DNA of 64,000 bases, taken from contig JAKFXC010000062.1 in NCBI GenBank assembly GCA_021731625.1, positions 4,479 to 68,478 of the forward strand, read 5' to 3'. The stretch is from Candidatus Omnitrophota bacterium (GTDB lineage: Bacteria > Omnitrophota > Gorgyraeia > Zapsychrales > Fredricksoniimonadaceae). How positions within the stretch are numbered: position 1 is the stretch's first letter; every line of letters begins with the position of its first letter. The position numbers and the translations under genes are program-made. This document shows positions 3,694 to 57,489 of this stretch, piece by piece. The notes beneath the pieces are model-generated. The model was not told the DNA's origin and made no database searches. It worked only from the letters and a program-made list of their open reading frames with translations.

Positions 3694-4623
3694 ATGATTT
3701 TATTTTTAGTCTTTGTGTTGATGGCGGTGCCCGCCGGTGCTGCCGTGGCAGCGACGGAAGAGGTTAAACCCAAACGCGTGGTCACCACCTTTACGATTTT
3801 ACAGGATATGGCGCAAAATGTGGCCGGCACCGTGGCCATTGTCGAATCCGTCACCAAACCCGGGGCGGAAATCCATGAATATGAGCCCACTCCGCTGGAC
3901 GTGGTCAAAGCTCAATCCGCTGATTTGGTTTTGTGGAACGGCCTCGGCCTCGAGCGATGGTTTGAAAAATTTTTCAGCAAAATCAAAAAGGTCCCCAGCG
4001 CGTATTTATCGGAAGGGATCGAACCTATGAGCATTGTGGAGGGCCCATACACCGGAAAAGCCAACCCCCATTCCTGGATGTCCCCGGCCAACGCGGTCAT
4101 TTATGTGGAGAACATACGTCAGGCCTTCATTGCCATGGACCCGGCCAACGCCGAAACCTATAATACCAACGCTGCCCTCTATATCGCCAAAATCAAAGCC
4201 GTGGACGAGCCTGTAAGGAAGAAATTGGAGGAAATCCCCCAGGACCAACGCTGGTTAGTCAGCAGCGAAGGGGCTTTTTCGTACCTTATTCGAAATTATG
4301 CCATGAAAGAACTTTATTTGTGGCCAGTCAATGCCGACAGCGAGGGCACTCCCAAACAGGTGCGCAAAGTGGTGGACACCGTGCGCAAAAATAAAATTCC
4401 GGTTGTTTTTGCGGAGAGCACCGTGAGTGACAAACCCATGCGGCAAGTGGCCAAGGAAACCGGGGCCCGGTTTGGCGGAGTGCTTTACGTGGACTCGCTG
4501 ACCGATGAGAACGGGCCAGCCTCCACATATCTTAAGCTCCTGCAATTTAATGCTAACACCATTGTCGAGGGGTTTGCCGGTAAAACGCATAAGGATGAGG
4601 GAGTTTCCAATGGATCAAAATGA
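3694..4623 (+). CDS. Metal ABC transporter substrate-binding protein (TroA/SitA/MntC/ZnuA cluster 9 family)
   Basis: Signal peptide; conserved [15 protein letters not shown] and DSL motifs. It lacks the His-rich ZnuA loop, and the two downstream permeases suggest an Mn/Fe/Zn SitABCD-type system. Confidence 0.8.
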
Positions 4624-5497
4624 AGGACCATTGACTTTGGAGCTTAAAGACCTCACCGTGGTCTATAACAACGGGTATGTGGGGTTGAAAAATGTCAGTT
4701 TTGACTTAGGCCCGGGCACGGTGTGCGCCTTGGTGGGTGTCAACGGCAGTGGCAAGTCGACTCTCTTTAAAGCGATCATGGGTTTTTTAAAACCGGCCCG
4801 GGGCAGTGTCCGGCTCGCCGGGCACTCGGTGGGGGCTGCCCTTCATAAAAATTTGGTGGCCTATGTGCCGCAATCCGAGGACGTGGATTGGACTTTTCCA
4901 GTAAGTGTTTGGGATGTGGTGCTGATGGGGCGTTATGGGTACATGAATTTTTTAAGGATCCCTAGCCTGGAAGATCAGAGCATCGCATTAAAGAGCCTGG
5001 AACGGGTGAATATGCAGGATTATCGCGACCGTCAGATCGGCGAATTGTCCGGCGGGCAGAAAAAGCGGGTCTTCTTGGCCCGGGCCTTAGCCCAGGGCGG
5101 GGGGATCATGCTGTTGGATGAGCCCTTTACCGGTGTGGATGTGAAAACAGAGTCCGCTATCATTGGACTTTTGCAGGAATTGCGTCGGGACGGACACATC
5201 ATTTTAGTCTCTACTCACAACCTGGGTTCGGTGCCGGATTTTTGTGACCAAGTGGTGCTTATTAATCGCACGGTGTTGGCGTTTGGGCCGACGGCGGAAG
5301 TCTTCACTGAGGCGAACTTGGGACGGGCTTTCGGTGGTGCCTTGAGACATTTGAAGTTTGACCACACCGATGTGCCGGGGGCGCGCAATGAAGTGGTGGT
5401 CTTAAGCGATGATGAGCGTCCGCTGGTCTTGGGACAGGACGGCCAGCCCAGCCATTTGGAAGACACGGAAAAAGATAAGAAGGACAAGGAACCATGA
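4610..5497 (+). CDS. Metal ABC transporter ATP-binding protein (SitB/MntB/TroB-like)
   Basis: Walker [10 protein letters not shown], signature LSGGQKKR, Walker B MLLDEP. Start set at ATG 4610 ([15 protein letters not shown]), overlapping the SBP stop by 14 nt. Confidence 0.8.
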
Positions 5498-11756: not shown

Positions 11757-11820
11757 TGTTATTTTCATATTTTTTTAATGTGACGAAGGCTAGACTAACA
11801 TAATTAACTGGAGGTGGAAG

Positions 11821-13511: not shown

Positions 13512-13541
13512 TTTAATTTTCACATTCTTTTAATCGCCACC

Positions 13542-26237: not shown

Positions 26238-26331
26238 TCTTGTTTTCATGTTCTCTTAATGGTGGGATTGGTAAATTAATCCGCGTTTAGGAACGCAATC
26301 ACAGAGAAAACCAGCTAAAAAGGAGACTCAC

Positions 26332-34685: not shown

Positions 34686-34826
34686 AAAAACCGTTTATCA
34701 TAAAAATACGCTGGATTAAATTTCCATGGCATTCATGGAAAACCCAGCGTATAGTCTTTCAAGCGACGCTTTTATCGGAAGTCAGCAAGGGGTCCACATT
34801 CTATTTTACACTCAGCGCAATTTAAC

Positions 34827-36602
34827 TACGCCATTATCGGCAATTGCACCACCGCTGCCCTGGTTAACGACGATTGTTCCATTGACTGGCTGTGCCTGCC
34901 TTTTTTTGACTCCCCGTCGATTTTTGCCCGTCTCCTGGACCAAAAAATAGGCGGCCATTTCAAGATTTGGGCCAAGGACGTGGTCAGTGTCGAGCAGGCC
35001 TACATCACCCATACTCCCATCTTAAAAACCATTTTCACCACCAAAGACGGCATTTTTGAGGTCCGCGATTACATGCCCCGCTTTGAACTCGCCGAAGGGG
35101 AGGTGTATTGCCCGTCCGAAATCCACCGCATCATCCGTCTGGTCCAGGGGAATCCAAAAATGACCGTTGAGCTTCAACCGCGCCCCAACTATGCCTTAAG
35201 CGAGGCGCACTTTGTCCATTCGAGCGAATATTTAAAAATCACCTCGATGAGCGGAGAGTACAACAGTTTTTATCTGTACTCGAATTTGAATCTCCACGAT
35301 GTCCTGAGTAATAAGGAAATGGAAATCAAGGAGTCATCCTATTTTTTATTGTCCTACCATGAGAAACTGGAAACGATAAACCCCGAAAAGATCCTGGTCG
35401 AGTATGAACGCACCAAGAGCCATTGGATGTACTGGGTGTACCGCACCAAAATTCCGGAGAGATACCGGGAAATGCTCATCCGTTCGATCATCACCTTAAA
35501 ACTCTTGATGTTCCAACGCACCGGCGCGGTGATTGCGGCCCCGACCACGTCTTTGCCTGAAATTATCGGGAAGGACCGCAACTGGGATTACCGTTATTGC
35601 TGGATGCGCGATTCAGCCATGATCATTTATCTATACACGCATTTGGGTCACGCGCGTTCCGCGTCCCGGTACATTTCATTCATTTTAAACCGGATGCTGC
35701 TTAAACATGAGGACATCGCGGTGATGTACGGCATCAACGGCGAACGCCTGCTGGAGGAGAGGGTCCTGGAGCATCTTAGCGGTTACGCAAATTCCCGCCC
35801 GGTGCGCGTGGGCAATGACGCCTATAGGCAAAAACAGAACGATGTGTACGGCGAATTGATTGAAACCATCTATGCGTTTTTTATTGCCAACCCTAAGGAG
35901 GTCATAGGGGTCAATGAGGAAATCTGGACCCTGGTGCGTTCCCTCGTCAATCGCGTGCTGGCCACCTGGCGAGACCCTGACAGCGGCATTTGGGAGAGGC
36001 GGGGGCCCATGCGGCATTTTGTGCATTCCAAACTGATGAATTGGGTGGCCATGGACCGGGCCGCCAAAATCGCGCAATTCGTCGGGAAAACCCGGTATGT
36101 GCCGGGGTATCTAAAAGTGGCGGATGAAATCAAGGACGATATTTTAAAAAATGGATGGAACCAGGACCAGCAAAGTTTTATGATGTATTATGGAGGAGGG
36201 GAGCTGGATGCTTCCAGCCTTTTGATGTTGCACTACGGCTTTTTGGACCGCAAAGACCCCCGCATGGTCAGCACCGTGCAGACCTTGCACCGGGAATTGA
36301 CCAGGGAAGGATTTGTGTTGCGTTACAAAGCTGCGGATGAGTTTGGGGTTCCGGAAAACGCCTTCATTGTGTGCACTTTTTGGATGATCAATGCCCTCTA
36401 TTTAATTGGGCAAGAACAGCAGGCCAGAGTCATGCTAGAAAAAATGATTTCCTTCGCGAACAAATTCGGACTTTATTCCGAAGACATTGAGCCGGCCACC
36501 GGGCGTTTGACCGGAAATTTTCCCCAGGGGTATTCGCATCTGGCCTTCATCCAAACTATTTTTTTGCTGGAAACCCAATACGACTGGAGCGATGCGGCCT
36601 AA
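34827..36602 (+). CDS. Glycoside hydrolase family 15 (glucoamylase/trehalase-type); true start lies upstream of the annotated ATG 34980 and is non-canonical or disrupted
   Basis: The conserved GH15 N-terminus YAIIGNCTTAALVNDDCSIDWLCLPFFDSPSIFARLLD is encoded from 34827, in frame with the 34980 ORF. There is no ATG/GTG/TTG between the upstream stop (34752) and this motif. The catalytic region SLPEIIGKDRNWDYRYCWMRDSA is present. Confidence 0.7.
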   Translation, partial: YAIIGNCTTAALVNDDCSIDWLCLPFFDSPSIFARLLDQKIGGHFKIWAKDVVSVEQAYITHTPILKTIFTTKDGIFEVRDYMPRFELAEGEVYCPSEIHRIIRLVQGNPKMTVELQPRPNYALSEAHFVHSSEYLKITSMSGEYNSFYLYSNLNLHDVLSNKEMEIKESSYFLLSYHEKLETINPEKILVEYERTKSHWMYWVYRTKIPERYREMLIRSIITLKLLMFQRTGAVIAAPTTSLPEIIGKDRNWDYRYCWMRDSAMIIYLYTHLGHARSASRYISFILNRMLLKHEDIAVMYGINGERLLEERVLEHLSGYANSRPVRVGNDAYRQKQNDVYGELIETIYAFFIANPKEVIGVNEEIWTLVRSLVNRVLATWRDPDSGIWERRGPMRHFVHSKLMNWVAMDRAAKIAQFVGKTRYVPGYLKVADEIKDDILKNGWNQDQQSFMMYYGGGELDASSLLMLHYGFLDRKDPRMVSTVQTLHRELTREGFVLRYKAADEFGVPENAFIVCTFWMINALYLIGQEQQARVMLEKMISFANKFGLYSEDIEPATGRLTGNFPQGYSHLAFIQTIFLLETQYDWSDAA

Positions 36603-44884: not shown

Positions 44885-45337
44885 TTGTACAATGGCGCTG
44901 TGAATGGCGCCATTGTCTTTTTTTTAACTGTGTCGATGTCCCTCTTAAGCAGCGGGCCCTTGCAGGCGGACCCCTATTCCGTCAAAAAATACAGTCCGAT
45001 TTCTTTAAAAATTGAATTGCCCAAAGACACCTATGCCGTGGGCGAGCGCATCGACGCTAAAATTGTGGTGAGCAGCACCCGCGGCGGGGGTTATCCCGCC
45101 ACATTCAATATCCGTCTCTACCATGGCAAAGACCTTTTCGATGAATACCGGACCAATTTTCCGCGGATTTTTATGGGCCGCACCGAATATGCCTTAAATG
45201 ATTTTGGCATCCCGCCGTTTAATGATTCTCCGGCGGCGGTGGGGGACTGGAACATCAGCATTTTGCAGCAAGACCTGGATGTGTCGAACGCGGCGTGGGC
45301 GACCATCCATGTGGTGATGCCGGAAAGGGAAGAGTAA
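44885..45337 (+). CDS. Hypothetical exported protein
   Basis: Hydrophobic N-terminus; no recognised domain. Confidence 0.35.
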   Translation: MYNGAVNGAIVFFLTVSMSLLSSGPLQADPYSVKKYSPISLKIELPKDTYAVGERIDAKIVVSSTRGGGYPATFNIRLYHGKDLFDEYRTNFPRIFMGRTEYALNDFGIPPFNDSPAAVGDWNISILQQDLDVSNAAWATIHVVMPEREE

Positions 45338-45855
45338 TGCCAGACCTGGACCTGGAAAAAATTTATCTGCTCTTTATCCAATATGGCATGAACGTGCTCG
45401 CTGCGGTGGTCATTTTTATCATTGGCCGCTGGGCAGCGCACCTTATCTCCAACTTTTTTGGGGCTGTATTGGAACGGACCAAGGTCAACTTGACCTTAGT
45501 CTCCTTTGCCAAGCACTTGGCTTTTTACGGGATCATGACCTTTGTGATCATTGCCGCGCTGAACAAGCTGGGGGTGGAAACCACGTCGTTCATAGCGGTT
45601 TTGGGGGCAGCTTCTTTGGCGGTGGGGCTGGCTCTGCAGGGCTCCTTGTCCAATTTTGCCTCGGGCGTGCTGCTTATCGTGTTTCACCCGTTTAGAGTGG
45701 GCGACCACATCGAGGCCGGCGGGGCGAACGGCCGGGTGGTGGAGATCCAGATTTTTAATACCCTGATGGTGACCGATGACTATAAACGCATCATTGTACC
45801 CAACTCCAAAATTACCGCAGATAAAATTGTCATTTTTCCTCCTGCAGCTGCTTAA
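45337..45855 (+). CDS. Small MscS-family mechanosensitive channel protein (TM3 + beta-domain only, 172 aa)
   Basis: The pore-helix motif AVLGAASLAVGLALQGSLSNFASGVLLIVFHPFRVGD..E is the MscS TM3/beta-domain signature. Confidence 0.7.
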   Translation: MPDLDLEKIYLLFIQYGMNVLAAVVIFIIGRWAAHLISNFFGAVLERTKVNLTLVSFAKHLAFYGIMTFVIIAALNKLGVETTSFIAVLGAASLAVGLALQGSLSNFASGVLLIVFHPFRVGDHIEAGGANGRVVEIQIFNTLMVTDDYKRIIVPNSKITADKIVIFPPAAA

Positions 45856-45860
45856 AAATT

Positions 45861-45890
45861 ACCTGCTGATACCTGCTGATACCTGCTGAT
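45861..45890. repeat. Perfect 3x tandem repeat of 10-bp unit ACCTGCTGAT in the promoter region of the first giant paralog
   Basis: Seen directly: acctgctgat acctgctgat acctgctgat. Confidence 0.9.
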
Positions 45891-45930
45891 AAAATTTGCA
45901 TATCCGATAAAATTATGGCACACTTTCTCT

Positions 45931-48710
45931 ATGTTAGATTATCTATATAAGAAGATGGTCAGCCTGGCGCTAGTCACCGCCTTTGTCGGCTCTTTCGTGT
46001 ATTTACCCCCATCTCAGGCCCACGCGGATGTCCTTTTAGGGCTGCCTGCCCCCGGTACTATGGTCAGCTTAAGCCCCGGCTATGCCACAGCTTTAATCAA
46101 AGGTTTAACCCTTCGTAAAGACAATCCTTTTTTGTTTGATTTCGTGGTGGACACCGGGGATAGCGGCCTCTCCGCTGAGGCTTAAAAATAGAAGGGGACC
46201 GTTTAGTCAAATATTTCTTTGCCTGTTTGACCATTCCTGAAAAAGATCTCTGGGTCAACTTAAGCCCCTATGAAAAAGATCGAATAGTCCCGGAAGCCTT
46301 AGGACAAACCGCTTTGGGCCGGGATCTACTCGCCCAAGACTATTTCCTCAAACAATTAACCGCTTCGCTGATTTATCCAGAGAAAGGCCTGGGCAAAACG
46401 TTTTGGGACCGCGTCTATGCCCAAGCCCAGCAAAAATTTGGGACTTCGCAGATTCCCGTCAATACTTTCAATAAAGTCTGGATCATGGCAGATAAAGCCA
46501 ACGTTTATGAGAGCGGTCAAACCGCCTTTGTGCTCGACGGTCATTTAAAGGTGATGCTCGAAGAGGACTACCTAGCGCTGCAGAAGAATGCCAAACCGAA
46601 ACAAAATGCCGGGACCTCTCAAATTGTCCGCGAAATCCCGGCTTCCATATCAACGGCTCATGCCCAGGAAAGCCGGGATTCCCTGCTGGCTAAAAGTATT
46701 CTGCAGGAAATCATCATCCCGGAGCTTGAGCGGGAAGTGAATACGGGTAAGAATTTTGCCACTTTGCGCCAAATTTATAATTCCCTTATCCTGGCCAGCT
46801 GGTACAAGAAGAATCTCAAGGAAGCATTACTCAATGAAGTTTACACCGATAAGAGCATGGTCAAAGGGGTGGATCTTTCTGACCCTTCTATAAAAGAAAA
46901 GATTTATGAGCAATATCTGAAAGCGTATAAGCAAGGCGTATTTAACTATATTAAGGAGGAACCCCGGGGTGACGGGCAAACTCTTCCTAAGAAGTATTTC
47001 TCCGGTGGATTTGGCGTTGCCCAGAATTTTCAGGCCACGTACCATTCTAATTCTCCTGGCAGTAGACCACTCTTAAATAGAGCCATGCAAAGCCTTTCAA
47101 AGACCTTAGCGGTGGTTGCCGTTGCGTTGGTGATGAATAGTCCGTTAGCTGTTTCGGCCGCTGGCTATGATGCGAAAACAGACACCATTATTGATTTTAG
47201 CGGGCGAGCGCACAAGGCTCCGACTTTGGATGAAATGATAGAGCGAGGTATGGATCCGAGGGATCCTCGGAGTTTCCTGCCCCCAGATTATTTTCGTGAT
47301 CTTTTTGGATTTGAAGAAATGATGCTGGCAGATCCTAAAATAAAGACGGAGGTCCTGAGAAGGATAGCGGAGGCGGTCAACCCGCGTGGGGCAATGTCCG
47401 CCGAAGAACTGGCGTATTTAACCAAATTTTCCAGCGAATTGTTGAGGAGACTGGCAGGATATGATCAGCCTCCTTCGCCGTGGTATACCGCACCAGGAGT
47501 AACTATTCCCAATGATGTCCAAGTCGACGCTCAAAAGGCAAAAAGAACGGCGGGTTTCAAAACAACCCAAGAGTGGGTGGATTATTTGGAAAACGAACTG
47601 CGCTTACCGCGGTTGATGGTTGAAGAATTGAGGGAGCTCAATGAAAAAGGCAAAGATGTTTTTGCTATCATCGATGCGTTGCCCCTGAAAGGATTCTCAC
47701 CACGGGTCGCCGATTTAGCCAGAGGGTTTCTCAAGGCGAGGTTTGCCAACGATCAAAAAACCCAGCTGCAGACGATCATGGACTTGATAAGAATACGAGA
47801 GGAAGCCCTAATTCTACGATCAGATGATCTGCTTCTGCTGGCTGTTTTTAAGGCGGGGTATTTTACCATACTCGAGACGAAGCGATTAGATCAAATAGCT
47901 GGTATTGCCGCAGAGGATGTAAGCCGCTATAACAGTGTGTTTTTTGGTCATTTGCTGGCCCAAATGATGGGGGACTCAGACCAAAAAGCGGAATTAAAGC
48001 AACGCATCAGGCAAATGTATGTGACAGCGTATGCCCGCGCATGGGCAGCCAAGCGAAACACCCTAAACGGACTATTTGCGGACAACGGTATTTACACCCG
48101 ACCCATGTTTAATTCCGCAGGCATGGACAACACCGAATTGCGGCGTATGAATGACATAGCCCAAGGCATTATCACGGCGGCGACGGCCTTAAGACTAGCC
48201 AATGGCAGTCAGGATCGCCTGGAGTCTTTAATCAGAGAATGGGACAAGGCTAAAGGCAATGTCTCATTTGCTTTCTCGAGAATTTTCCATGCCGTAGTCA
48301 TGGGACGACAAGCCGGTGATGTGCAGAATATAGATTTCCCAGGAATATTGGACACATTGAATGCTCTCCCGCCCAATAGAAGACCGGACCGTGACGATCT
48401 TCGAAGATGGGCCGAGCTTGTCCAAAAAAATAGAACTAAGCAAGAGAAGGCAATGGTGGCGCCGGACGAGGCCGATCAAGCCGTAATCACGGAGACCAGC
48501 GATGCCGTATCACCCGGCGGTATCGACTTAAAAACGGCCAACCTGGCCATGACGGTCACCAAAGACGGGAACGGCGGTGTGCAGGTGCTATTTGACCCGT
48601 TACTGCTGGAGGATCTCAGAACTCAAGGTATAAAATCTGCAAACCCCATCATTGTGGATATTAAGCTCATGAGTTCGGCGCAGATTCCCGCTCTCCTTTC
48701 TACACCATGA
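45931..48710 (+). CDS. Giant-protein family paralog 1 (~925 aa if the frameshift is repaired): signal peptide + shared N-domain + unique middle + shared C-terminal module; frameshifted at 46181-46189
   Basis: ORFs 45931..46185 and 46227..48710 are collinear with paralogs 2 and 3: ...DSGLSAEA | LKIEGDRLVKYFFACLTIPEKDLWVNLSPYEK versus LSGEALKQESLKLIKYFLAGLTVPQKDLWVNLSPYEK. One extra nucleotide in the ctt-aaaaa run would restore the frame. Confidence 0.6.
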
Positions 48711-51700
48711 GTCTACGACGCTATATTCTTATTTTGATAATCAGCACAAACTTGATGGCTCCATTGCCGGCACCGCAGGCCTCCGAACTGATTTTGCCGC
48801 AGCCGGGCAGTATGCTCACGCCTACAAAAGCATACAATTCGGTATCGGTCAAAGGCCTAACCATTGACCCTAAAAATCCACTGCGATTTAGTTTTATTGT
48901 TGAACCCGGGGATACGGGATTAAGCGGCCTGCAGCTTAAAGATGAATCCCTCAAGCTTATTAAATATTTTCTTTCGGCATTAACCATACCGGAAGACGAA
49001 ATGTGGGTCAACCTTTCGCCTTACGAAAAAAATCGCATCATTACCGATCAATTCGGATCAACTCAAATGGGCCGGGATTTATTGGCCCAAGACTACATCC
49101 TTAAACAGCTCAGCGCTTCTTTGATCTATCCGGAACATGCTTTAGGAAAGGCGTTTTGGCAAAAAGTATATTCTCAGGTTAAGGATCAATTTAGAACCAC
49201 GCAAATGCCGGTTAATATGTTCAACAAAATTTGGATCGTTCCGGACCAAGCGTCAATCTATGAGCATCAAAACAGCGCGTTTATTGTTAACTCGAGATTA
49301 AAAGTGTTAATGGAACAAGACTATCTGGCCACTCAAAAGAATGATCAGGTTATTTCAAAAGAGCCGCAGGATCGCGGGCTATCTCAAATCATACGCGATA
49401 ATATCGTGCCTGCGATCGAAAAAGAGGTCAACGAAGGGGCCCACTTTGCCAATTTACGGCAAATCTATCAAGCCATGATATTAGCGGTTTGGTATAAAAT
49501 TCGGCTCAAAGACAGCCTCTTGGGAAAGACGTATGTCAATTTGCATAAAGTCAAAGGTGTGGCACTGGCGAACACCAAAGACAATGACATGATTTATCAG
49601 AATTATCTTCGGGCTTTTAAAAAAGGAGTCTTTAACTACATCAAGGAAGAAGAGAATTTGGCAAATCACGAAATGGTTTCCAGAAAATATTTTTCCGGGG
49701 GATTTATGCCGGCTCAATTAGCCCCCATCGTAAAGCAAGGTTTAGTATTCAACCTGCCAGATAGGGCGATCCTAAGCCCAGAGGCTCAAACTGTCACCTG
49801 GGAAGCGGAGGCACTGACCTCGGACCAGGGGATGACTGGAGAATTGCAACAAAGTCTAAAAATGTCGGATCAAGATTTTCAAGTCCTGCTGGGTAGACTG
49901 GCCAAAGATAAGTACATCACCGCAAATTCGGAAGTGGATTTAGAGTTTAAAGGCCTGAAGCCGGCTTACGCCAGGCTTTATCCTGCTCACCATGACCGAA
50001 TTTCAAAGTTACTTTCCGACGGACGTTTAAAACGGCTGGAAAAAATGGAACAAGACCGCAGAGCTTCCATCAAGCAGGAGCTAGGTGATTGGACAGAGAA
50101 AGTCAATGCGGCGGTAAAGCGGAATCAGCAAACAGAAGCAACCAAAAGGGAGGCCTTGGTCCAAAAATGGACACCAACATTTAAAAGATACGGCATTTAT
50201 TATTTTTATTTATTTAAATATATGTCAGAACGTATATTCCACATGCCGTTTAGGTATGAGCTGGAAGATTTTCTCCAAGAATCTGTTGTTGCTTGCCATG
50301 GCGTTGCTGAATTGGGAAAGACAGATGACATTTCGTTTATCATAGCTGCCCAACGGCATTTTCTGCAGTTTTTCGCGGAAGAAGACAGGATACCCTACAA
50401 AACAAAAGTTGGCGTGGTTACAAAGTTGCGGGCTTTGATCGAAAATTATTCTGCCTCCAAGCTTCAAGTGGTGCCAAATAGGTACCTTGTGCCTGCGCTA
50501 CGAGCTGAGTTTCCTAAGCTCCAGCGGTATGTACGCCCCAATGACCCGTTGGAAGGGGAGGTTGAGGCGGGTCATTTCGGATTAATTCCCCTGGAGGAAA
50601 CGTCACGGGAACTATATTTGCAAGCGGCTCTACCTAGAGTCTTGGATCAAACGAAGAAAGCCAATCGTCTTGTCGCTCTGCAATTTGGCCTTGGTGATGA
50701 CATAGAAAAGAGCAATGCATGGATTGCCAAAGAGTTGGGGTATCAGTTCGAAAATAGTGTGCGCTCAAGGTCGTACGAAATCCGGGTGACATTAAGCAAG
50801 AATAAGGCCTTGCGGGACCTTACTGTTTATGATCATCAATGGGTACTGTTCAATGATACTCTAGATTTTTTGCGTTATCAAGAGCGCGCCGCACAGAGTT
50901 CCTCGCCCAAAAAAATTCCTCATGAGCCGGCATTGAATTTTGAAGACGAGCGGCGATTGATGGATTTGGTGCATTTGTGGTTTGCTGCAAGTCAGCTGCG
51001 ATTTCTGCGGGCACTGTATTTAGGAGACAATACCGATAGCTTCAACGAGGGGGTGCAACGAGAAGCTAAACGAAGGATCAATTTATTCCTCACGCTCGGT
51101 GTGTTGTCTGAATTTGGTTTGGGGGAGCAATTAATCCCCACCATTGTCCGCTTGAGCGCCGAAACCCCACTGCAGCGCATGTTTCGTCATGCGGGAGTAG
51201 AGCAATTGTTAAGAATTTCCAATGGGGACATTAATGCCGTGGTTGAATTCGTCATGCAAATGTTTCCCGAGGTATATAAGGAAGAGGATGTTCGGCGTTT
51301 AGCTCGAGGCTATTTTGATTTACCCAAGATTCCGCAAAGTCCCCATGTTGCTCCTCAACAAGTCCTTAGAATTGTTCATAACGTCATTAGTAAAATGGAA
51401 GGTGGCGAGAGTAGACGTAGATATTTGGTCAAAAGACGCTTAGTCCGTGATCTCTACTACCATTCGATCGTAAACAATACATCGCAAGCATTAGAGGGTC
51501 TTAATGCTGCTATCGGCGAAGCCGGCAGCGATCAAGAATGGCAAAATCTTTTAAAAGACACGTATGACTACTATCAACAAGCGACCGCGTTTTATCCACG
51601 CGGCTTTCAGGAGGAAACTGAGGTGGGTCAGGAGCCGATGCTGCCCGCGCAGAGATTTGGTATTTGGGAGGCAGTTTTGTCCCTATCCAATCCTCGTTTG

Positions 51701-53347
51701 GAAAGTGCGGTGCATATGAGTGAAGCCCGTATCGGCAAAACCATTATGGCGATTTTGTCCGTCTTTAATGTGCGCAAGCCGAATAGCAATGACTATGCGG
51801 TGCGGAAGGTCCTCTACACCACCACCAATAGCGCCAAATATGAGGTTTACAATGAGCTTGTGCGGCGTACGAATAAAGAGTTGGATTTGCATGTTATTGT
51901 GGTCGACCGTCAAAACGGCAATCGTGAGCAGCAAGTCGAAGAAGCCATTAAGTTAGCGGAAGATCCAACCAAAAACGTGGTGTTAATCGCCAATTATGAC
52001 GCCGTGAGATTATCACCGGAGGCATTTTCTAAATTTGCTCCTGACGCGCACATTGTTGACGAGGTGGAGTCGCTAAAAAGTGGTGATGCCAAGCGCACTC
52101 CTATCATTTTCGGTATTCCAGCGAAATATCGGGTTGCGGTCAGTGCCCGCGCCGTAGTCAATCGCTCAGAGGATGTCCATGAATTAATTTTGTGGACCCA
52201 GCACCGCGAATTCTTGCCTTGGGGAAGAAAGAAAGAAGACGCATTGCAGGAGCTTAAAGACATGTCCCAAGATCGAGTATTTGAGGTGTTAAGCAGGAAT
52301 CAGAGTCGATGGCGCCGTAGTACCGTTATGCCTGAGGTCAAAGAACCCGTATTTACCAATGAGCCTATTGAATATTCACTGGAGCAGCAACAAAGCATTC
52401 TGAAAATCAGCAGCGTGGATGAATTTGAGGATTGGCAATTAAACGAAGCGCGGGAAGACAAGGGAGACATGAACGATAGTGTTCTGACAAGGATTGATTT
52501 ACTGAGAAGAGCCAGTATTGAGCTGGGCTTGGTTCAAAAAGAAGCCTATTTCGGACAATATATGGACGCGTCCCCAAAAATTCAGCGCCTGGATGCCATC
52601 ATTGACAATGAATTCAAGAGTCAGGGAAAAGTATACGTCGAAGCAGATTTTCCCGAAGCCATTGACCGATTGGTGGCGCGTTATGCCCAAAAATACGGGC
52701 CGCGAGCAGCGGCAGGAATCCATGGTCAAACGCTCGTTAAGGACCGAGTTGATATTATTCGCCGGTTCCGCAGTGACCCGGAATTAAAAATATTGATAGG
52801 GACACCGCATACAACAGCTTCTTCCTTGAATTTGTCTCAGCTGCGAGGTAGTTCTTTCCACAATTCTTTGTTAGTGCGATTAGATTTGCCCGCTCGCAAT
52901 GTCGATGATGGCGATCGTTTGATCGATCCTTGGCAAGATAAGCAAGTCCGGGTGATCTCATTAATAGGCGTCTTTCGAAAGGATGATCTTGCCAAATACA
53001 AGCGATCCATTGATGAGCAGTTCTTCGACTTGCGGTCGGAGAAGCAACGGGTCTTCGAGCATGTTATTGATGGAAAACCCCTCGTTTCGGATGAGGAAAC
53101 GGAAGAAATTAAGGATATGGTTGAGGAGTTTATGGAGCCGTCGGAAATCGACGCTGCCATGATGGAAAAGGGTGGTATCGATTTAAATTCCAAATCCTTG
53201 AAGCTGCACATGAATGGTGATCAACCGGCTGCCTCGTTTAGGGGTACGTTCCTCCCTGCATTTGATGGTCTTTACCCGGTGCTTGTCGATATACAGCCAG
53301 CGAATACTGGTTCGAAATACCCCCCCGGATTATTTGAAAAGCATTAA
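48707..53347 (+). CDS. Giant-protein family paralog 2 (1546 aa, intact): signal peptide + shared N-domain + SNF2-like SF2 ATPase module + shared C-terminal module
   Basis: Shares the N-terminal ~330 aa with the other two paralogs. Internal SNF2 motifs: I SEARIGKTIMAI, II HIVDEVESLKS, III RVAVSARAVVNRSEDVHELILW..FLP; helicase-C-like GIHGQT..ILIGTPHTTASSLNLS and DKQVRVISLIG. Confidence 0.7.
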   Translation: MSLRRYILILIISTNLMAPLPAPQASELILPQPGSMLTPTKAYNSVSVKGLTIDPKNPLRFSFIVEPGDTGLSGLQLKDESLKLIKYFLSALTIPEDEMWVNLSPYEKNRIITDQFGSTQMGRDLLAQDYILKQLSASLIYPEHALGKAFWQKVYSQVKDQFRTTQMPVNMFNKIWIVPDQASIYEHQNSAFIVNSRLKVLMEQDYLATQKNDQVISKEPQDRGLSQIIRDNIVPAIEKEVNEGAHFANLRQIYQAMILAVWYKIRLKDSLLGKTYVNLHKVKGVALANTKDNDMIYQNYLRAFKKGVFNYIKEEENLANHEMVSRKYFSGGFMPAQLAPIVKQGLVFNLPDRAILSPEAQTVTWEAEALTSDQGMTGELQQSLKMSDQDFQVLLGRLAKDKYITANSEVDLEFKGLKPAYARLYPAHHDRISKLLSDGRLKRLEKMEQDRRASIKQELGDWTEKVNAAVKRNQQTEATKREALVQKWTPTFKRYGIYYFYLFKYMSERIFHMPFRYELEDFLQESVVACHGVAELGKTDDISFIIAAQRHFLQFFAEEDRIPYKTKVGVVTKLRALIENYSASKLQVVPNRYLVPALRAEFPKLQRYVRPNDPLEGEVEAGHFGLIPLEETSRELYLQAALPRVLDQTKKANRLVALQFGLGDDIEKSNAWIAKELGYQFENSVRSRSYEIRVTLSKNKALRDLTVYDHQWVLFNDTLDFLRYQERAAQSSSPKKIPHEPALNFEDERRLMDLVHLWFAASQLRFLRALYLGDNTDSFNEGVQREAKRRINLFLTLGVLSEFGLGEQLIPTIVRLSAETPLQRMFRHAGVEQLLRISNGDINAVVEFVMQMFPEVYKEEDVRRLARGYFDLPKIPQSPHVAPQQVLRIVHNVISKMEGGESRRRYLVKRRLVRDLYYHSIVNNTSQALEGLNAAIGEAGSDQEWQNLLKDTYDYYQQATAFYPRGFQEETEVGQEPMLPAQRFGIWEAVLSLSNPRLESAVHMSEARIGKTIMAILSVFNVRKPNSNDYAVRKVLYTTTNSAKYEVYNELVRRTNKELDLHVIVVDRQNGNREQQVEEAIKLAEDPTKNVVLIANYDAVRLSPEAFSKFAPDAHIVDEVESLKSGDAKRTPIIFGIPAKYRVAVSARAVVNRSEDVHELILWTQHREFLPWGRKKEDALQELKDMSQDRVFEVLSRNQSRWRRSTVMPEVKEPVFTNEPIEYSLEQQQSILKISSVDEFEDWQLNEAREDKGDMNDSVLTRIDLLRRASIELGLVQKEAYFGQYMDASPKIQRLDAIIDNEFKSQGKVYVEADFPEAIDRLVARYAQKYGPRAAAGIHGQTLVKDRVDIIRRFRSDPELKILIGTPHTTASSLNLSQLRGSSFHNSLLVRLDLPARNVDDGDRLIDPWQDKQVRVISLIGVFRKDDLAKYKRSIDEQFFDLRSEKQRVFEHVIDGKPLVSDEETEEIKDMVEEFMEPSEIDAAMMEKGGIDLNSKSLKLHMNGDQPAASFRGTFLPAFDGLYPVLVDIQPANTGSKYPPGLFEKH

Positions 53348-53386
53348 GAATATGTTATACTTTCATAGATTCACAGGGAAATCCTC

Positions 53387-56300
53387 ATGAACAAATCCAA
53401 AAAAACCGCATACCTTGCTTCCTTTATTATAGTTTCTTTCGTCACCAGTTTTTCGCAAACGCCGGTCTACGCCCAGGAACTGATCCTGCCGTTGCCCGGG
53501 ACCATGGTCACGGCCAGCCCTAAATTTGCGCCAGCCATTATACGCGGTATCCAGTTTAACGCCAAAAACCCCTTCCAATTTGATTTTATCATTGACCGCG
53601 GGGACGACAAGCTCTCCGGGGAGGCTTTGAAACAGGAGTCCTTGAAACTCATCAAGTATTTCCTGGCCGGCTTGACTGTGCCGCAAAAGGACTTGTGGGT
53701 CAACCTCTCGCCGTACGAAAAAGGCCGCATTGTGCCGGACGGCTTTGGCCAAACCGACATGGGCCGCGACCTGTTGGCGCAGGATTACCTTTTGAAACAA
53801 CTGACCGCGTCGCTGGTGTACCCAGAAAAAGAATTAGGCAAAAAGTTTTGGGAAAAAGTCTACGCTAGGGCCAAAGAGCAGTTCGGTTCGGCCCAAATAC
53901 CCGTTAATACCTTTAATAAGGTGTGGATCGTGCCGGACAAGGCCGTGGTGTTGGAGCGTAAAGGCGGCGTGTATGTGTCTCAAAGCCATTTGAAGGTGAT
54001 GCTGGAACAAGACTACCTGGCTTCTCAAAAAAACGTTAAGGTAGCTAGGTCCCAGAAGGGGATTACCACTGCTTCAGACAAGGCCGTGTCTTCCCAAACC
54101 ATCCGCGACATCATTCTCCCCGAGATCGAACAGGAAGTCAATGAAGGCGCCAATTTCGCCGCCTTGCGCCAGGTGTTCAATTCTCTAATTTTGGCCATCT
54201 GGTATAAAAAGAACCTCAAAGATGCGGTGCTCAATAGAGTTTATGCTAACTCCAACAAAATCAACGGCATTGATATTGAAGATAAAGACAGCAAGGAGAA
54301 AATTTACCAGCAGTACCTGCAGGCGTTTAAAAAAGGTGTGTATAGCTATATTAAGGAAGATGCTACGCCTGCGGGTCAGTCAGCCGCCAGGAAATATTTT
54401 TCCGGCGGCGTCAACGTGGAAAACTTGGTTGTGGAAACCGAAAAAGAAAACCAGGCCATGGCCCTCACCATCGCTGAACGGAGCCGCAATGGCGATCTGG
54501 CTCAAATTAGCTGGTTGACCCAGGAGGTTAAAAATCCTAGGTATAGACAAAATTACACACAGGCCCGGTATACCTTCTTAATGAGCACCAAAGGCTATCA
54601 GGAGAGCCTGGGTCGTAAATTTGCACTGCAACTGGATGCTAATCGTGGTGATGGTGTGCTCTCGTATCATCAGCAATTATTGCAAAAAGCATTTAGCCTC
54701 GACCTGAAGAAGCAGAAGGAATTCCTGGCTGCATATAAAGATTATTTTAAATATAACCGCTATGGGATGGAAAATTCATCGATCCCCCGGACCTCGAAAA
54801 ATTGGTGGGTACGGAGCCCGCATTCGGATACTACGAGGGTGAGCATTTCACTTCCTATGCGACCGATGAACTGCTGGCTGTGGATTATCTTAAGACTTTT
54901 GCCCCGGCAGATTTTGACCGCGAACTCAACTGGCTGCTCGTGGAAGTTCCCGCCTTAACGGACGAGCAGGATATGAGTTCCGAAAAGCTGCTGCAATATT
55001 TGGACGAGGCCATTAAGCGCTTGTTCTCCTTTGCAGACCTTAAGCTTCATACGGATGTCCGCTTTCAAGTAGAGCAAGACTTACGCACCTATTTTTATAA
55101 ACAGCTGCTAAATCGCAAAAGTACTTCCCAGCGTATAATCCGGTTGTCCAACACCACGTCGCGCGATGGCCAGCAATCTAACAAAGGCACAAACCTGACA
55201 GGTCTTGACCAGTGGAAACTATTGTCCTGGATTGTAAAATTTGGCAATGTATCCACGATTGAATCCTGGGGCGGGGCTGCAAATCAATCCGCGGTCTTAA
55301 AGACCAAGCGCATTTATCAAGTGCCCGGACAGGAAGAGCCGCTGAAAAATTGGGCCGAGGACCCTTTTTTTAATTTAAGAGAGCAGACAAAATTGTTGGA
55401 AGATAACCTCAAGGAAGCTTTTGGGGAAGACCTGGATCGGTTGGAGGATGATGACCGCGAAAGGATTTTCAATCGGTACAAGCGCGACTTTGACCGCAAA
55501 ATCTTATCCGAATTTGACCTTAATGCGATTCTGAAAAGATACAATCTCAGTGAACAGGTGAAGAATCGCGTCCGTAAAGTCTATGAGATTAAGCAGGAAA
55601 TGCTTTTACGCGGGACTTTTCTGGTTGCCCTGGATCAGTTTCCGGAACCGGTGGTGAAGGAATTTGTGGAGGTGGCATGGCGGAATGGAGTCGATGTTTT
55701 TCGTATTTTTGATGCCATGAACCGGATCAACGAAATCGATGGGCCGCTTAAATACGCCCGGGCCCTGGGAGCTAAAGTCCAGCCTGCCATTCATTACACC
55801 AAAGGTTTTCCTAGGGGGATTCCTAAATATGTGGAGCTAGCCAAGGAATTGGTCAGAATCAGCGGGCACGCCCTGGATAGTTTAGTGATCAAGGATGCCG
55901 CAGGCCAGTTGGAGCCGGAGGAAGCCTATAAACTGGTTAAAGCTTTGCGTCAGGCGGGCATCACTGTTCCGATTCAAATCCATACCCATGATACCAATGG
56001 TAATCGGCAATTGACGTTGTTGGAAGCTATCCGAGCCAACGGGGAAGATTATCCCATTATTGTGGATGTGTCCACCGGTGAGTTGGCCGCACCCTTGGCC
56101 CAGCCCAATGACCGCCATTTTTTAAACATTGTGCAGGGAACAAAGTGGGAGGGGACGCTCATTAAAGATGTGGATTTTGAGCAAATGGAGCAAGCGGAAT
56201 TTTTTATAAAAAGCGACATTAACCTTCACAGTCCCTCTGTGCCAATGACGACCGAAGATCGTTTACGCATCGTGAGAGCGAACATTCCCGGAGGTTTAAA

Positions 56301-57489
56301 AACGAATAATGACAATGATATCAACAATGCCTTACATATGTATGAAAAACTCATCCGTAAAGTTTTCGATATTATTTTTTGGGATCCGCGTGGGAACTTG
56401 ACCGCCAAGGGCCAGGCCTTTAGAGCTGCCTTAGTACGGCTTATGGAGGAAGAAATACCAAGGGTTCGTAAGGACATGGGCAATTTCTCATTGGTCACGC
56501 CCACCAGCGAGTGGGTGGTCAAGCAGTCGCTAAATAATGTTATAGGGTGGATTATTGCAGACCAAACGGTTTTGAACACCAGCAATCCGCAGCAGTGGCA
56601 GCTGTCCATCAAAGAAGATCTCCTCCGTAAAAACCGTAAGAGCCAATATCTGTACAGTGTTGGTTTGGCCGCTCATTTGCATGAAGATCTGCAAAATTAC
56701 CTGGTTGAGTGGACCCAGGACACGGAATTGCAGGATATGTATCCGGATATAAACACAGAGTTGCTGGCTTGGGCGTTTGATATCGAAGGCATTAATATTG
56801 AATTGGATGATCAAAATCGGTTGACTGATAGTCCGCTCGAAAAATTTCAAAATTTAAGAAAATTTTTTGAAAAAAGATTTGTGGATGTGCCTACCATCAA
56901 AGTTTTGCATAAAATGGAAAAATTACGGGAAGGCGGCGATGCGGACGCTCTAGAGAATCTGGAATCTCAAGAATTTTCTTGGGACCTGATCAATAGGATT
57001 TTAAAAAACGAAAAACCCATGAATATCATCAAAAGGCCGGAAGATTATGTCCAGAACTACCAACAGCTGCGGAATAAATATCCTCAGGTCAAGGGTTCAC
57101 CGGAAGATAAAATCTTGGCCAGAGTTTTTCCCAAGGAAGGTCAGTTTTCAAATTTAATTGAAACCAGGAGGATCTTAGAAGAGCAGATCGACCAAGCCCG
57201 CCAAAACTTGCCGGCAGATCATGAGAAGATTCGCAGTTTAGCTGCGGCTTATAAACGTGCCGGCGGTCGCAGCGGAGAGCGGCGTAGCGCAGCGAGTGCC
57301 GCCATGATCGGTGATGACAAAGACGGCGGCATCAATTTGAATCCGGATTTTTATGATCTGCAGATTAATCGCGAAGGTAAAAGAGCTATTGATTTTGCCA
57401 TGCAGGGACCTGCTTTAACTCCGCAGCAAGTCCAAGGCCTCACCCCTGTCATCCTCGGCGTCAAGATCTTGACGCATTTGGAAATTTAA
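53387..57489 (+). CDS. Giant-protein family paralog 3 (~1367 aa if the frameshift is repaired): signal peptide + shared N-domain + pyruvate-carboxylase-type carboxyltransferase TIM-barrel domain + shared C-terminal module; frameshifted in C5 tract 54784-54788
   Basis: ORFs 53387..54958 and 54802..57489. One extra C gives a continuous ...YGMENSSIPPDLEKLVGTEPAFGYYEGEHF. The internal region NGVDVFRIFDAMN...AIHYTKG...LVIKDAAGQLEPEEAYKLVKALRQAGITVPIQIHTHDTNGN...DVSTGELA aligns with the PC/OadA carboxyltransferase domain. Confidence 0.6.

Follow-up and report, generated by a model that had tools for sequence, protein, structure and literature searches.

A one-base frame break in the first of three tandem paralogs of a large Omnitrophota gene family, possibly a young pseudogene

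The locus described here raises a simple question: why is a gene whose relatives are read in one frame divided between two? It lies in a stretch of 64,000 nucleotides (nt) of a Candidatus Omnitrophota bacterium (GenBank assembly GCA_021731625.1, contig JAKFXC010000062.1, positions 4,479 to 68,478 of the forward strand), and this whole stretch is referred to below as the window. The gene, paralog 1, is the first of three tandem paralogs of a family whose members share a Sec-type signal peptide, a conserved N-domain of ~360 amino acids (aa), a highly variable middle and a conserved C-terminal module (C-module) of ~70 aa. The listing of the window gives 45931..46185 and 46227..48710 as two open reading frames (ORFs), in exact agreement with a preliminary description of this DNA, which ascribed the split to a single-base indel, either an assembly error or genuine pseudogenisation, and added that the site could be phase-variable. 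The either/or was the right framing; the phase variability and the placement of the indel in an A homopolymer did not stand up to analysis. What is left is an ordinary one-base frame break, not a designed switch. With about even confidence, we take it to be a young pseudogene, made by a genuine and very recent deletion that inactivated one copy of a redundant multicopy family. The features at the break are the following.

45931..46185, plus strand: 5' fragment of paralog 1, 84 codons and then TAA, matching residues 5-80 of paralog 3 in BLASTP (E 1e-19); it holds the signal peptide (MLDYLYKK-hydrophobic-SQAHA/DV) and the first two beta strands of the N-domain.
46177..46184, plus strand: interval of the indel (AGGCTTA...), bounded by the frame-3 TGA at 46176-46178 and the frame-1 TAA at 46183-46185.
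46179..48710, plus strand: 3' fragment of paralog 1, 843 codons in the -1 frame (BLASTP E 3e-113); it holds the rest of the N-domain (to ~47020), an orphan middle and the C-module (GGIDLKTANL...NPIIVDI).
46227..46229, plus strand: TTG, the first possible start of the downstream ORF, without a Shine-Dalgarno (SD) sequence.

Around the break, at 46160-46200, the DNA reads ...gat agc ggc ctc tcc gct gag gct TAA aaa tag aag ggg acc... Frame 1, entered at the ATG at 45931, ends in GDSGLSAEA and is closed by the TAA at 46183-46185. The frame one base back opens after the TGA at 46176-46178, reads GLKIEGDRLVKYFFACLTIPEKD... and is free of stops up to the TGA at 48708-48710; over the 843 downstream codons it contains no stop at all, whereas the other two frames contain 46 and 56. 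That these two collinear frames are the parts of one split gene, as the preliminary description had it, is borne out by alignments far beyond chance. Residues 7-84 of the 84-aa fragment correspond to residues 5-80 of the 523-aa paralog 3, ending in ...LSGEA (E 1e-19), and the alignment of the second frame begins at residue 80 (ALKQESLKLIKYF...) and extends over 280 residues with 58% identity (E 3e-113). Because the first alignment ends and the second starts at residue 80 of paralog 3, the two fragments abut to the residue with nothing lost; they are one gene. The same collinearity is seen when all three paralogs are aligned (paralog 2 at 48707, paralog 3 at 53387). Once both frames are joined, the repaired paralog 1 has the signal peptide and an N-domain with the family motifs, and the 46179..48710 frame ends in the C-module (PGGIDLKTANL...NPIIVDI). 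Further decay was looked for in paralog 1 and not found: there are no extra stops in the 843 codons, and the C-module is intact.

The position of the missing base can be confined to a few nucleotides. The shift needed is -1, i.e. one base is missing (codon phases 46180 -> 46179), and the indel must lie within 46177-46184 because the frame-3 TGA ends at 46178 and the frame-1 TAA starts at 46183. These bounding stops exclude the A homopolymer of ctt-aaaaa, where the indel had been put in the preliminary description, and place it in the C or T run of one to three bases before the A5. A comparison with related assemblies, which that description had proposed, was made with 80 related loci (L001-L080) that were fetched from Omnitrophota metagenome-assembled genomes (MAGs) and from which the homologous codons were extracted. 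Every one of the 80 is in a single frame over residues 41-130 and ungapped at the break site, where x-L/F-K-x-E is the family consensus. Of the nearest relatives, L006 and L035 have GAG GCC TTA AAA, L039 has GAT GCT TTA AAG, and L007 and L036 have GCA TTA AAR; paralog 1 has GAG GC- TTA AAA ATA, which is one base short. Judged from these codons, the most parsimonious placement of the lost base is the third position of Ala codon 84, GAG GC[N] TTA AAA ATA. One inserted base at this codon restores the gene and matches the E-A-L-K of the family; the contraction is T3->T2 or C2->C1, just upstream of the A5 run (46184-46188). The site as given at 46180-46189 is GCTTAAAAAT, and the forms with one base more are GCTTTAAAAAT or GCCTTAAAAAT. 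As to the homopolymer background, the window has 113 A5 runs and 126 T5 runs.

The break in paralog 1 is not the only one in the array. The three paralogs (45931-57489) are all on the same strand and make up an array of 11.5 kb, the rest of which is composed as follows.

48707..53347, plus strand: paralog 2, intact, 1546 aa, with the same N-domain, an SNF2-type helicase middle and a C-terminal GGIDLN module.
53387..54958, plus strand: 5' part of paralog 3, 523 codons with signal peptide and N-domain, the last ~55 codons being out-of-frame read-through.
54752..57489, plus strand: 3' part of paralog 3 in the -1 frame, with a carboxyltransferase domain (pyruvate carboxylase/oxaloacetate decarboxylase-type) and a C-module (GGINLN...GLTPVILGV).

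The neighbouring paralogs had been described as intact, which is correct for paralog 2 and incorrect for paralog 3, where a second -1 shift was overlooked. The 5' ORF of paralog 3 contains the N-domain, runs into a tail rich in W, C and R, and has no C-module. From 54752 on, the -1 frame is open; it has neither a signal peptide nor an SD sequence and closes with the C-module of the family. This second frameshift falls within ~54752-54795, a region that holds G3, A4 and C5 runs; the junction is not narrowed further because the linker of paralog 3 is without homologues, a search with it having returned only self-hits. With regard to expression, paralog 3 starts 39 nt after paralog 2 and has an SD-like AGGGA, and paralog 2, with no SD sequence upstream, starts at an ATG that shares bases with the stop of paralog 1 (ATGA). 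Because of this overlap in the absence of an SD sequence, the arrangement suggests that paralog 2 is translationally coupled to the end of paralog 1.

How might the array have come to this state? Under the young-pseudogene reading, the base would be missing from the DNA of the organism and not only from the assembly, and the gene would consequently be non-functional. Paralog 1 would be the first gene of a three-gene array in a redundant family with fast turnover, and loss of the third base of codon 84 would have shifted its frame. Translation from the ATG at 45931 would then end at the TAA at 46183 after 84 residues, leaving the remaining 843 codons in the -1 frame, and any product of a restart would have lost the signal peptide, with the cut falling within a helix that is modelled with confidence. 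Paralog 3, alongside, would have been inactivated in like manner. A real mutation is supported by the otherwise clean window, by the very short run affected, by a neighbouring MscS-like gene that is truncated, and by the concentration of the breaks in a redundant family. The probability of both frame breaks falling inside the 11.5-kb array is ~p=0.05 if they were randomly placed over coding sequence, and this placement is in keeping with relaxed selection among redundant copies. Also in favour are the single frame of all 80 related loci, the great size of the family with its several loci per MAG, and the disruption of other members (L033, L042, L044) at other sites in other genomes; the truncated MscS-like gene and a GC content of the array below that of its flanks are additional hints that the locus has been rearranged or is decaying. 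The break also has much in common with the frameshift pseudogenes, or ‘frameshifted’ genes, of other bacterial genomes and MAGs: a single-base indel, contiguous intact homologues, abutting parts and an out-of-frame stop. Unlike the usual frameshift pseudogenes, however, paralog 1 has no further lesions, and two of three tandem paralogs have been hit.

Several points weigh against a real mutation, and they deserve to be stated together. There is no second lesion in paralog 1, so the event must be either very young or not real, and an indel confined to the assembly would leave 843 codons without stops just as well. A real break would moreover come at a cost to paralog 2, should its translation depend on coupling to the end of paralog 1. 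The sequence comes from one NCBI contig, apparently of an Omnitrophota MAG as with all its relatives here, and no second copy or near-identical strain was found. Exact look-ups of the 827-aa and 1546-aa products matched no recorded contig, a gapped DNA pattern across the site had no match in genome_contigs or metagenome_contigs, and the protein collections held no other copy; the window products that were checked are singleton clusters, all from one NCBI contig of 84,233 bp. Finally, split members of the family in other genomes come from thinly covered contigs. Three other disrupted members are known among the fetched loci, and they break at places unrelated to the site in paralog 1: L044 has a frameshift at a G7 run (4875-4941) on a contig with 1.39x coverage, L042 has an in-frame TAA (4501-4503) between its N-part and its C-module on a contig with 1.71x coverage, and L033 has a degraded N-terminus. 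The contigs of L044 and L042 have the two lowest coverages among the 19 with a stated coverage, and these two members are a warning that splits in this family can be artefacts.

An indel of assembly, consensus or sequencing is indeed the explanation that competes most seriously with a young pseudogene, and we consider it a substantial possibility that falls somewhat short of even. It would mean that the gene of the organism is intact, that a base was dropped at 46180-46183 and that another was dropped in paralog 3; this could come about in a variable genomic island where local coverage is low or the strains differ. The fully open downstream frame and the intact C-module are what an artefact would leave, and so is a pair of breaks that are both one-base deficits adjoining short homopolymers. 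The overlap of the start of paralog 2 with the stop of paralog 1 suggests that the full-length frame is in use, and in other MAGs the splits lie on contigs of 1.4x and 1.7x coverage, one of them at a G7 run, which sets a precedent for low coverage. The composition of the region points the same way. The GC content of the array and the genes just after it (46-59 kb) is 0.44-0.49, as against 0.50-0.56 in both flanks, which fits a compositional island; in such regions the consensus of a MAG is often at its weakest.

The rest of the window argues against an artefact. In ~40 kb of intact genes there are 92 homopolymers of at least 6 nt, 20 of them of at least 7 nt, and none is frameshifted. Because so many runs are without a frameshift, the window is unlike an assembly with generic homopolymer errors, and an error at a run of 2-3 nt is unlikely to come from such an assembly. 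The affected run of paralog 1 is only 1-3 nt long, and a contig of 84 kb implies reasonable coverage. Overlapping or short ORF pairs and the gaps between ORFs were scanned with Pfam and NCBIfam; domains were complete and no further gene was split, with one possible exception in a GH15 gene, which is described below.

Programmed -1 recoding, through ribosomal frameshifting or transcriptional slippage, would yield a full-length protein from the split gene, perhaps by a mechanism shared with paralog 3. The same direction of shift is needed in both split paralogs, their downstream frames are fully open, a stop codon would occupy the A site at the shift position, and AAAAAT follows both candidate sites. 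The need for a -1 shift to obtain the full-length product is also what characterizes dnaX and the IS3-family transposases, which are well-known cases of programmed -1 frameshifting. Unlike these, paralog 1 has no slippery heptamer, no stimulatory structure and no conserved shift. The zero-frame codons at the shift are GAG GCT TAA, which do not fit X XXY YYZ, and tRNA-Ala would need to re-pair from GCU to GGC; the best heptamer candidate in paralog 3, G AAA AAT, is not canonical. Four folds of the RNA (80-86 nt, at and after both sites) had no greater stability than shuffled sequences, with z of +0.52, +0.90, +1.15 and -0.30. A run for transcriptional slippage, of ~8 or more A or T before the frame change, is absent: only the TT at 46182-83 precedes the stop, and the A5 is at or after it. 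The frameshift is conserved in 0 of the 80 related loci, all of which are in one frame, and the other disrupted members are split at unrelated positions. A prfB-type +1 frameshift (CUU UGA with an upstream SD-like element) was considered too and rejected, as it goes in the wrong direction. Taken together, these results leave programmed recoding a very slim chance.

Phase variation fares no better, and we think it very improbable that paralog 1 is a contingency gene turned on and off by reversible slipped-strand mispairing at the T/A run. There is a resemblance to the contingency loci of Neisseria, Haemophilus and Campylobacter, since the indel adjoins a homopolymer and lies early in a multicopy, variable gene that is probably exported, being secreted or surface-related. 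Known phase-variation switches have tracts of ~7 nt or more. Unlike in the contingency loci, the tract here is far too short, with 1-3 nt at the indel and the A5 beside it; the indel site (46177-46184) lacks a long repeat tract, and the adjacent A5, outside of which the indel lies, is one of 113 in the window and thus commonplace. Longer runs in the same genes have stayed in frame (T6 at 46128, A7 at 48424, and A7 at 53399 and 54027), an expanded tract at this codon is absent from the 80 related loci, all of which are in frame, and the other split members break elsewhere. The suggestion in the preliminary description that the site is phase-variable was dropped on these grounds.

A broader proposal covers both of these mechanisms: members of the family may be expressed through a non-canonical, low-efficiency -1 frameshift or a reversible indel, which would throttle or switch individual cargo proteins. 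It was put forward because two paralogs need a -1 shift, the downstream frames are open and paralog 2 is seemingly coupled to paralog 1; we give it a slim chance, and programmed or switchable frameshifting in total has only a very small share of the probability. The weakest explanation, to which we give next to no weight, is that the locus makes two products by design, an 84-aa secreted peptide and an independently initiated 827-aa protein: both ORFs are listed as separate proteins in a public protein collection, but the break makes no structural sense where it falls, at the beginning of a helix (residues 78-97 of the paralog 3 model, in a region with a predicted local distance difference test score, pLDDT, of ~90), the second ORF has no SD sequence, no ATG and no near-universal signal peptide, its product from the TTG at 46227 being also without the first ~100 residues of the domain, and none of the 80 related loci is so organised.

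The surroundings of the array have some features of their own. Directly upstream lies the MscS-like gene (45295-45855), which stops at profile position 178/286 without its C-terminal domain. It is apparently cut short at its 3' end, just at the point where the array starts; the 3' remnant was looked for downstream of the array and none was found. The stretch between this gene and paralog 1 contains the following region.

45860..45913, plus strand: upstream region of paralog 1, with two promoter-like matches and a threefold tandem TACCTGCTGA at 45860-45889.

The three copies of TACCTGCTGA are perfect, lie between the MscS ORF and the start of paralog 1, and overlap the promoter-like matches; they could be an operator or a regulatory repeat. 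A further repeat in this area is the exact 10-mer GCTTAAAAAT, of which the window has just two copies, 330 bp apart: one where the truncated MscS gene stops (45850-45859), the other at the frameshift and stop of paralog 1 (46180-46189). Its expected number is 0.27 per window, and at least two copies were seen in 2 of 100 shuffles. The pair was considered as a recombination or insertion junction and rejected, there being no similarity past the 10-mer and 36 of 300 shuffles having an equal local alignment score; the repeat is probably a coincidence.

Two observations from elsewhere in the window may be added. The GH15 gene mentioned above (glucoamylase/trehalase-like, 34980..36602) has TREH_N homology that starts at profile position 19 and reaches upstream of the first ATG, GTG or TTG. 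Its frame, open as far back as 34755, has no canonical start, and an ATT at 34803 has AAGGGG 10 nt upstream; the gene may start at this ATT, or a further small indel may separate it from the ATG at 34727, which lies in a different frame. A T-rich motif, ttttcaYRttYtYttaatg, is found after the stops of three genes (11757-11780, 13512-13535 and 26238-26260) and may be a shared terminator or regulatory element.

It is the family to which the broken gene belongs, rather than the break, that merits the closer look. Of the 8,000 candidates scored in a search with the repaired paralog 1 protein, 4,369 were significant relatives, and those that carry a name are from Candidatus Omnitrophota/Omnitrophica. 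The N-domain of paralog 3, used as the query of an exhaustive HMMER scan, gave 8,054 cluster representatives (50% identity), 6,267 of them at E<=1e-30, and in these proteins of 420-4,553 aa the N-domain is always N-terminal. The motifs of the N-domain are WVNLSPYE, GRDLLAQDY and KYFSGG, and that of the C-terminal module is GGIDLN...G.xSLxPVI. The signal peptide is nearly universal, and several family loci are found per MAG, the family being multicopy per genome. What the signal is joined to are cytoplasmic-type proteins. By their Pfam matches, the middle parts of the relatives include adenylate kinase, enolase, phosphoglycerate kinase, Glu/Leu dehydrogenase, transaldolase and malate synthase, and further ones the C-terminal domain of RpoA, response-regulator receivers and methyltransferases. 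The middle region of paralog 1 had no homologue beyond itself in 5.8 billion proteins. As for the N-domain, no Pfam or NCBIfam model matched it, it has no sequence relative in the PDB, and the comparison with solved structures gave no significant match and no credible structural neighbour.

The family shares with toxins of the Rhs/CdiA type or the TANFOR type an exported conserved N-module, variable parts, many copies per genome and tandem arrays. It differs from them in that there is no similarity of sequence or fold, the variable part stands between two conserved modules, and this part consists of cytoplasmic-type enzymes and regulators, not toxins. Text searches of two papers on the Omnitrophota, Seymour 2023 (PMC10066038) and a preprint (bioRxiv 10.64898/2026.06.07.730766), turned up no mention of this family or of frameshifts. 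The family is very large, belongs to the Omnitrophota and is uncharacterised, and it is a more interesting object than the frameshift itself.

On its own, the frameshift is of little weight. Its practical consequence is that frameshifted genes should be flagged in annotation, lest the 84-aa and 827-aa ORFs of paralog 1 and the 523-aa and ~895-aa ORFs of paralog 3 spread as separate proteins; some of these ORFs are already in public protein collections as singletons. If the mutation is real, the locus would document birth-and-death turnover in a very large lineage-specific family. That family is the noteworthy by-product of the analysis: a broken gene led to more than 8,000 clusters of proteins in which secretion signals are fused to cytoplasmic-type enzymes, and these merit a study of their own.

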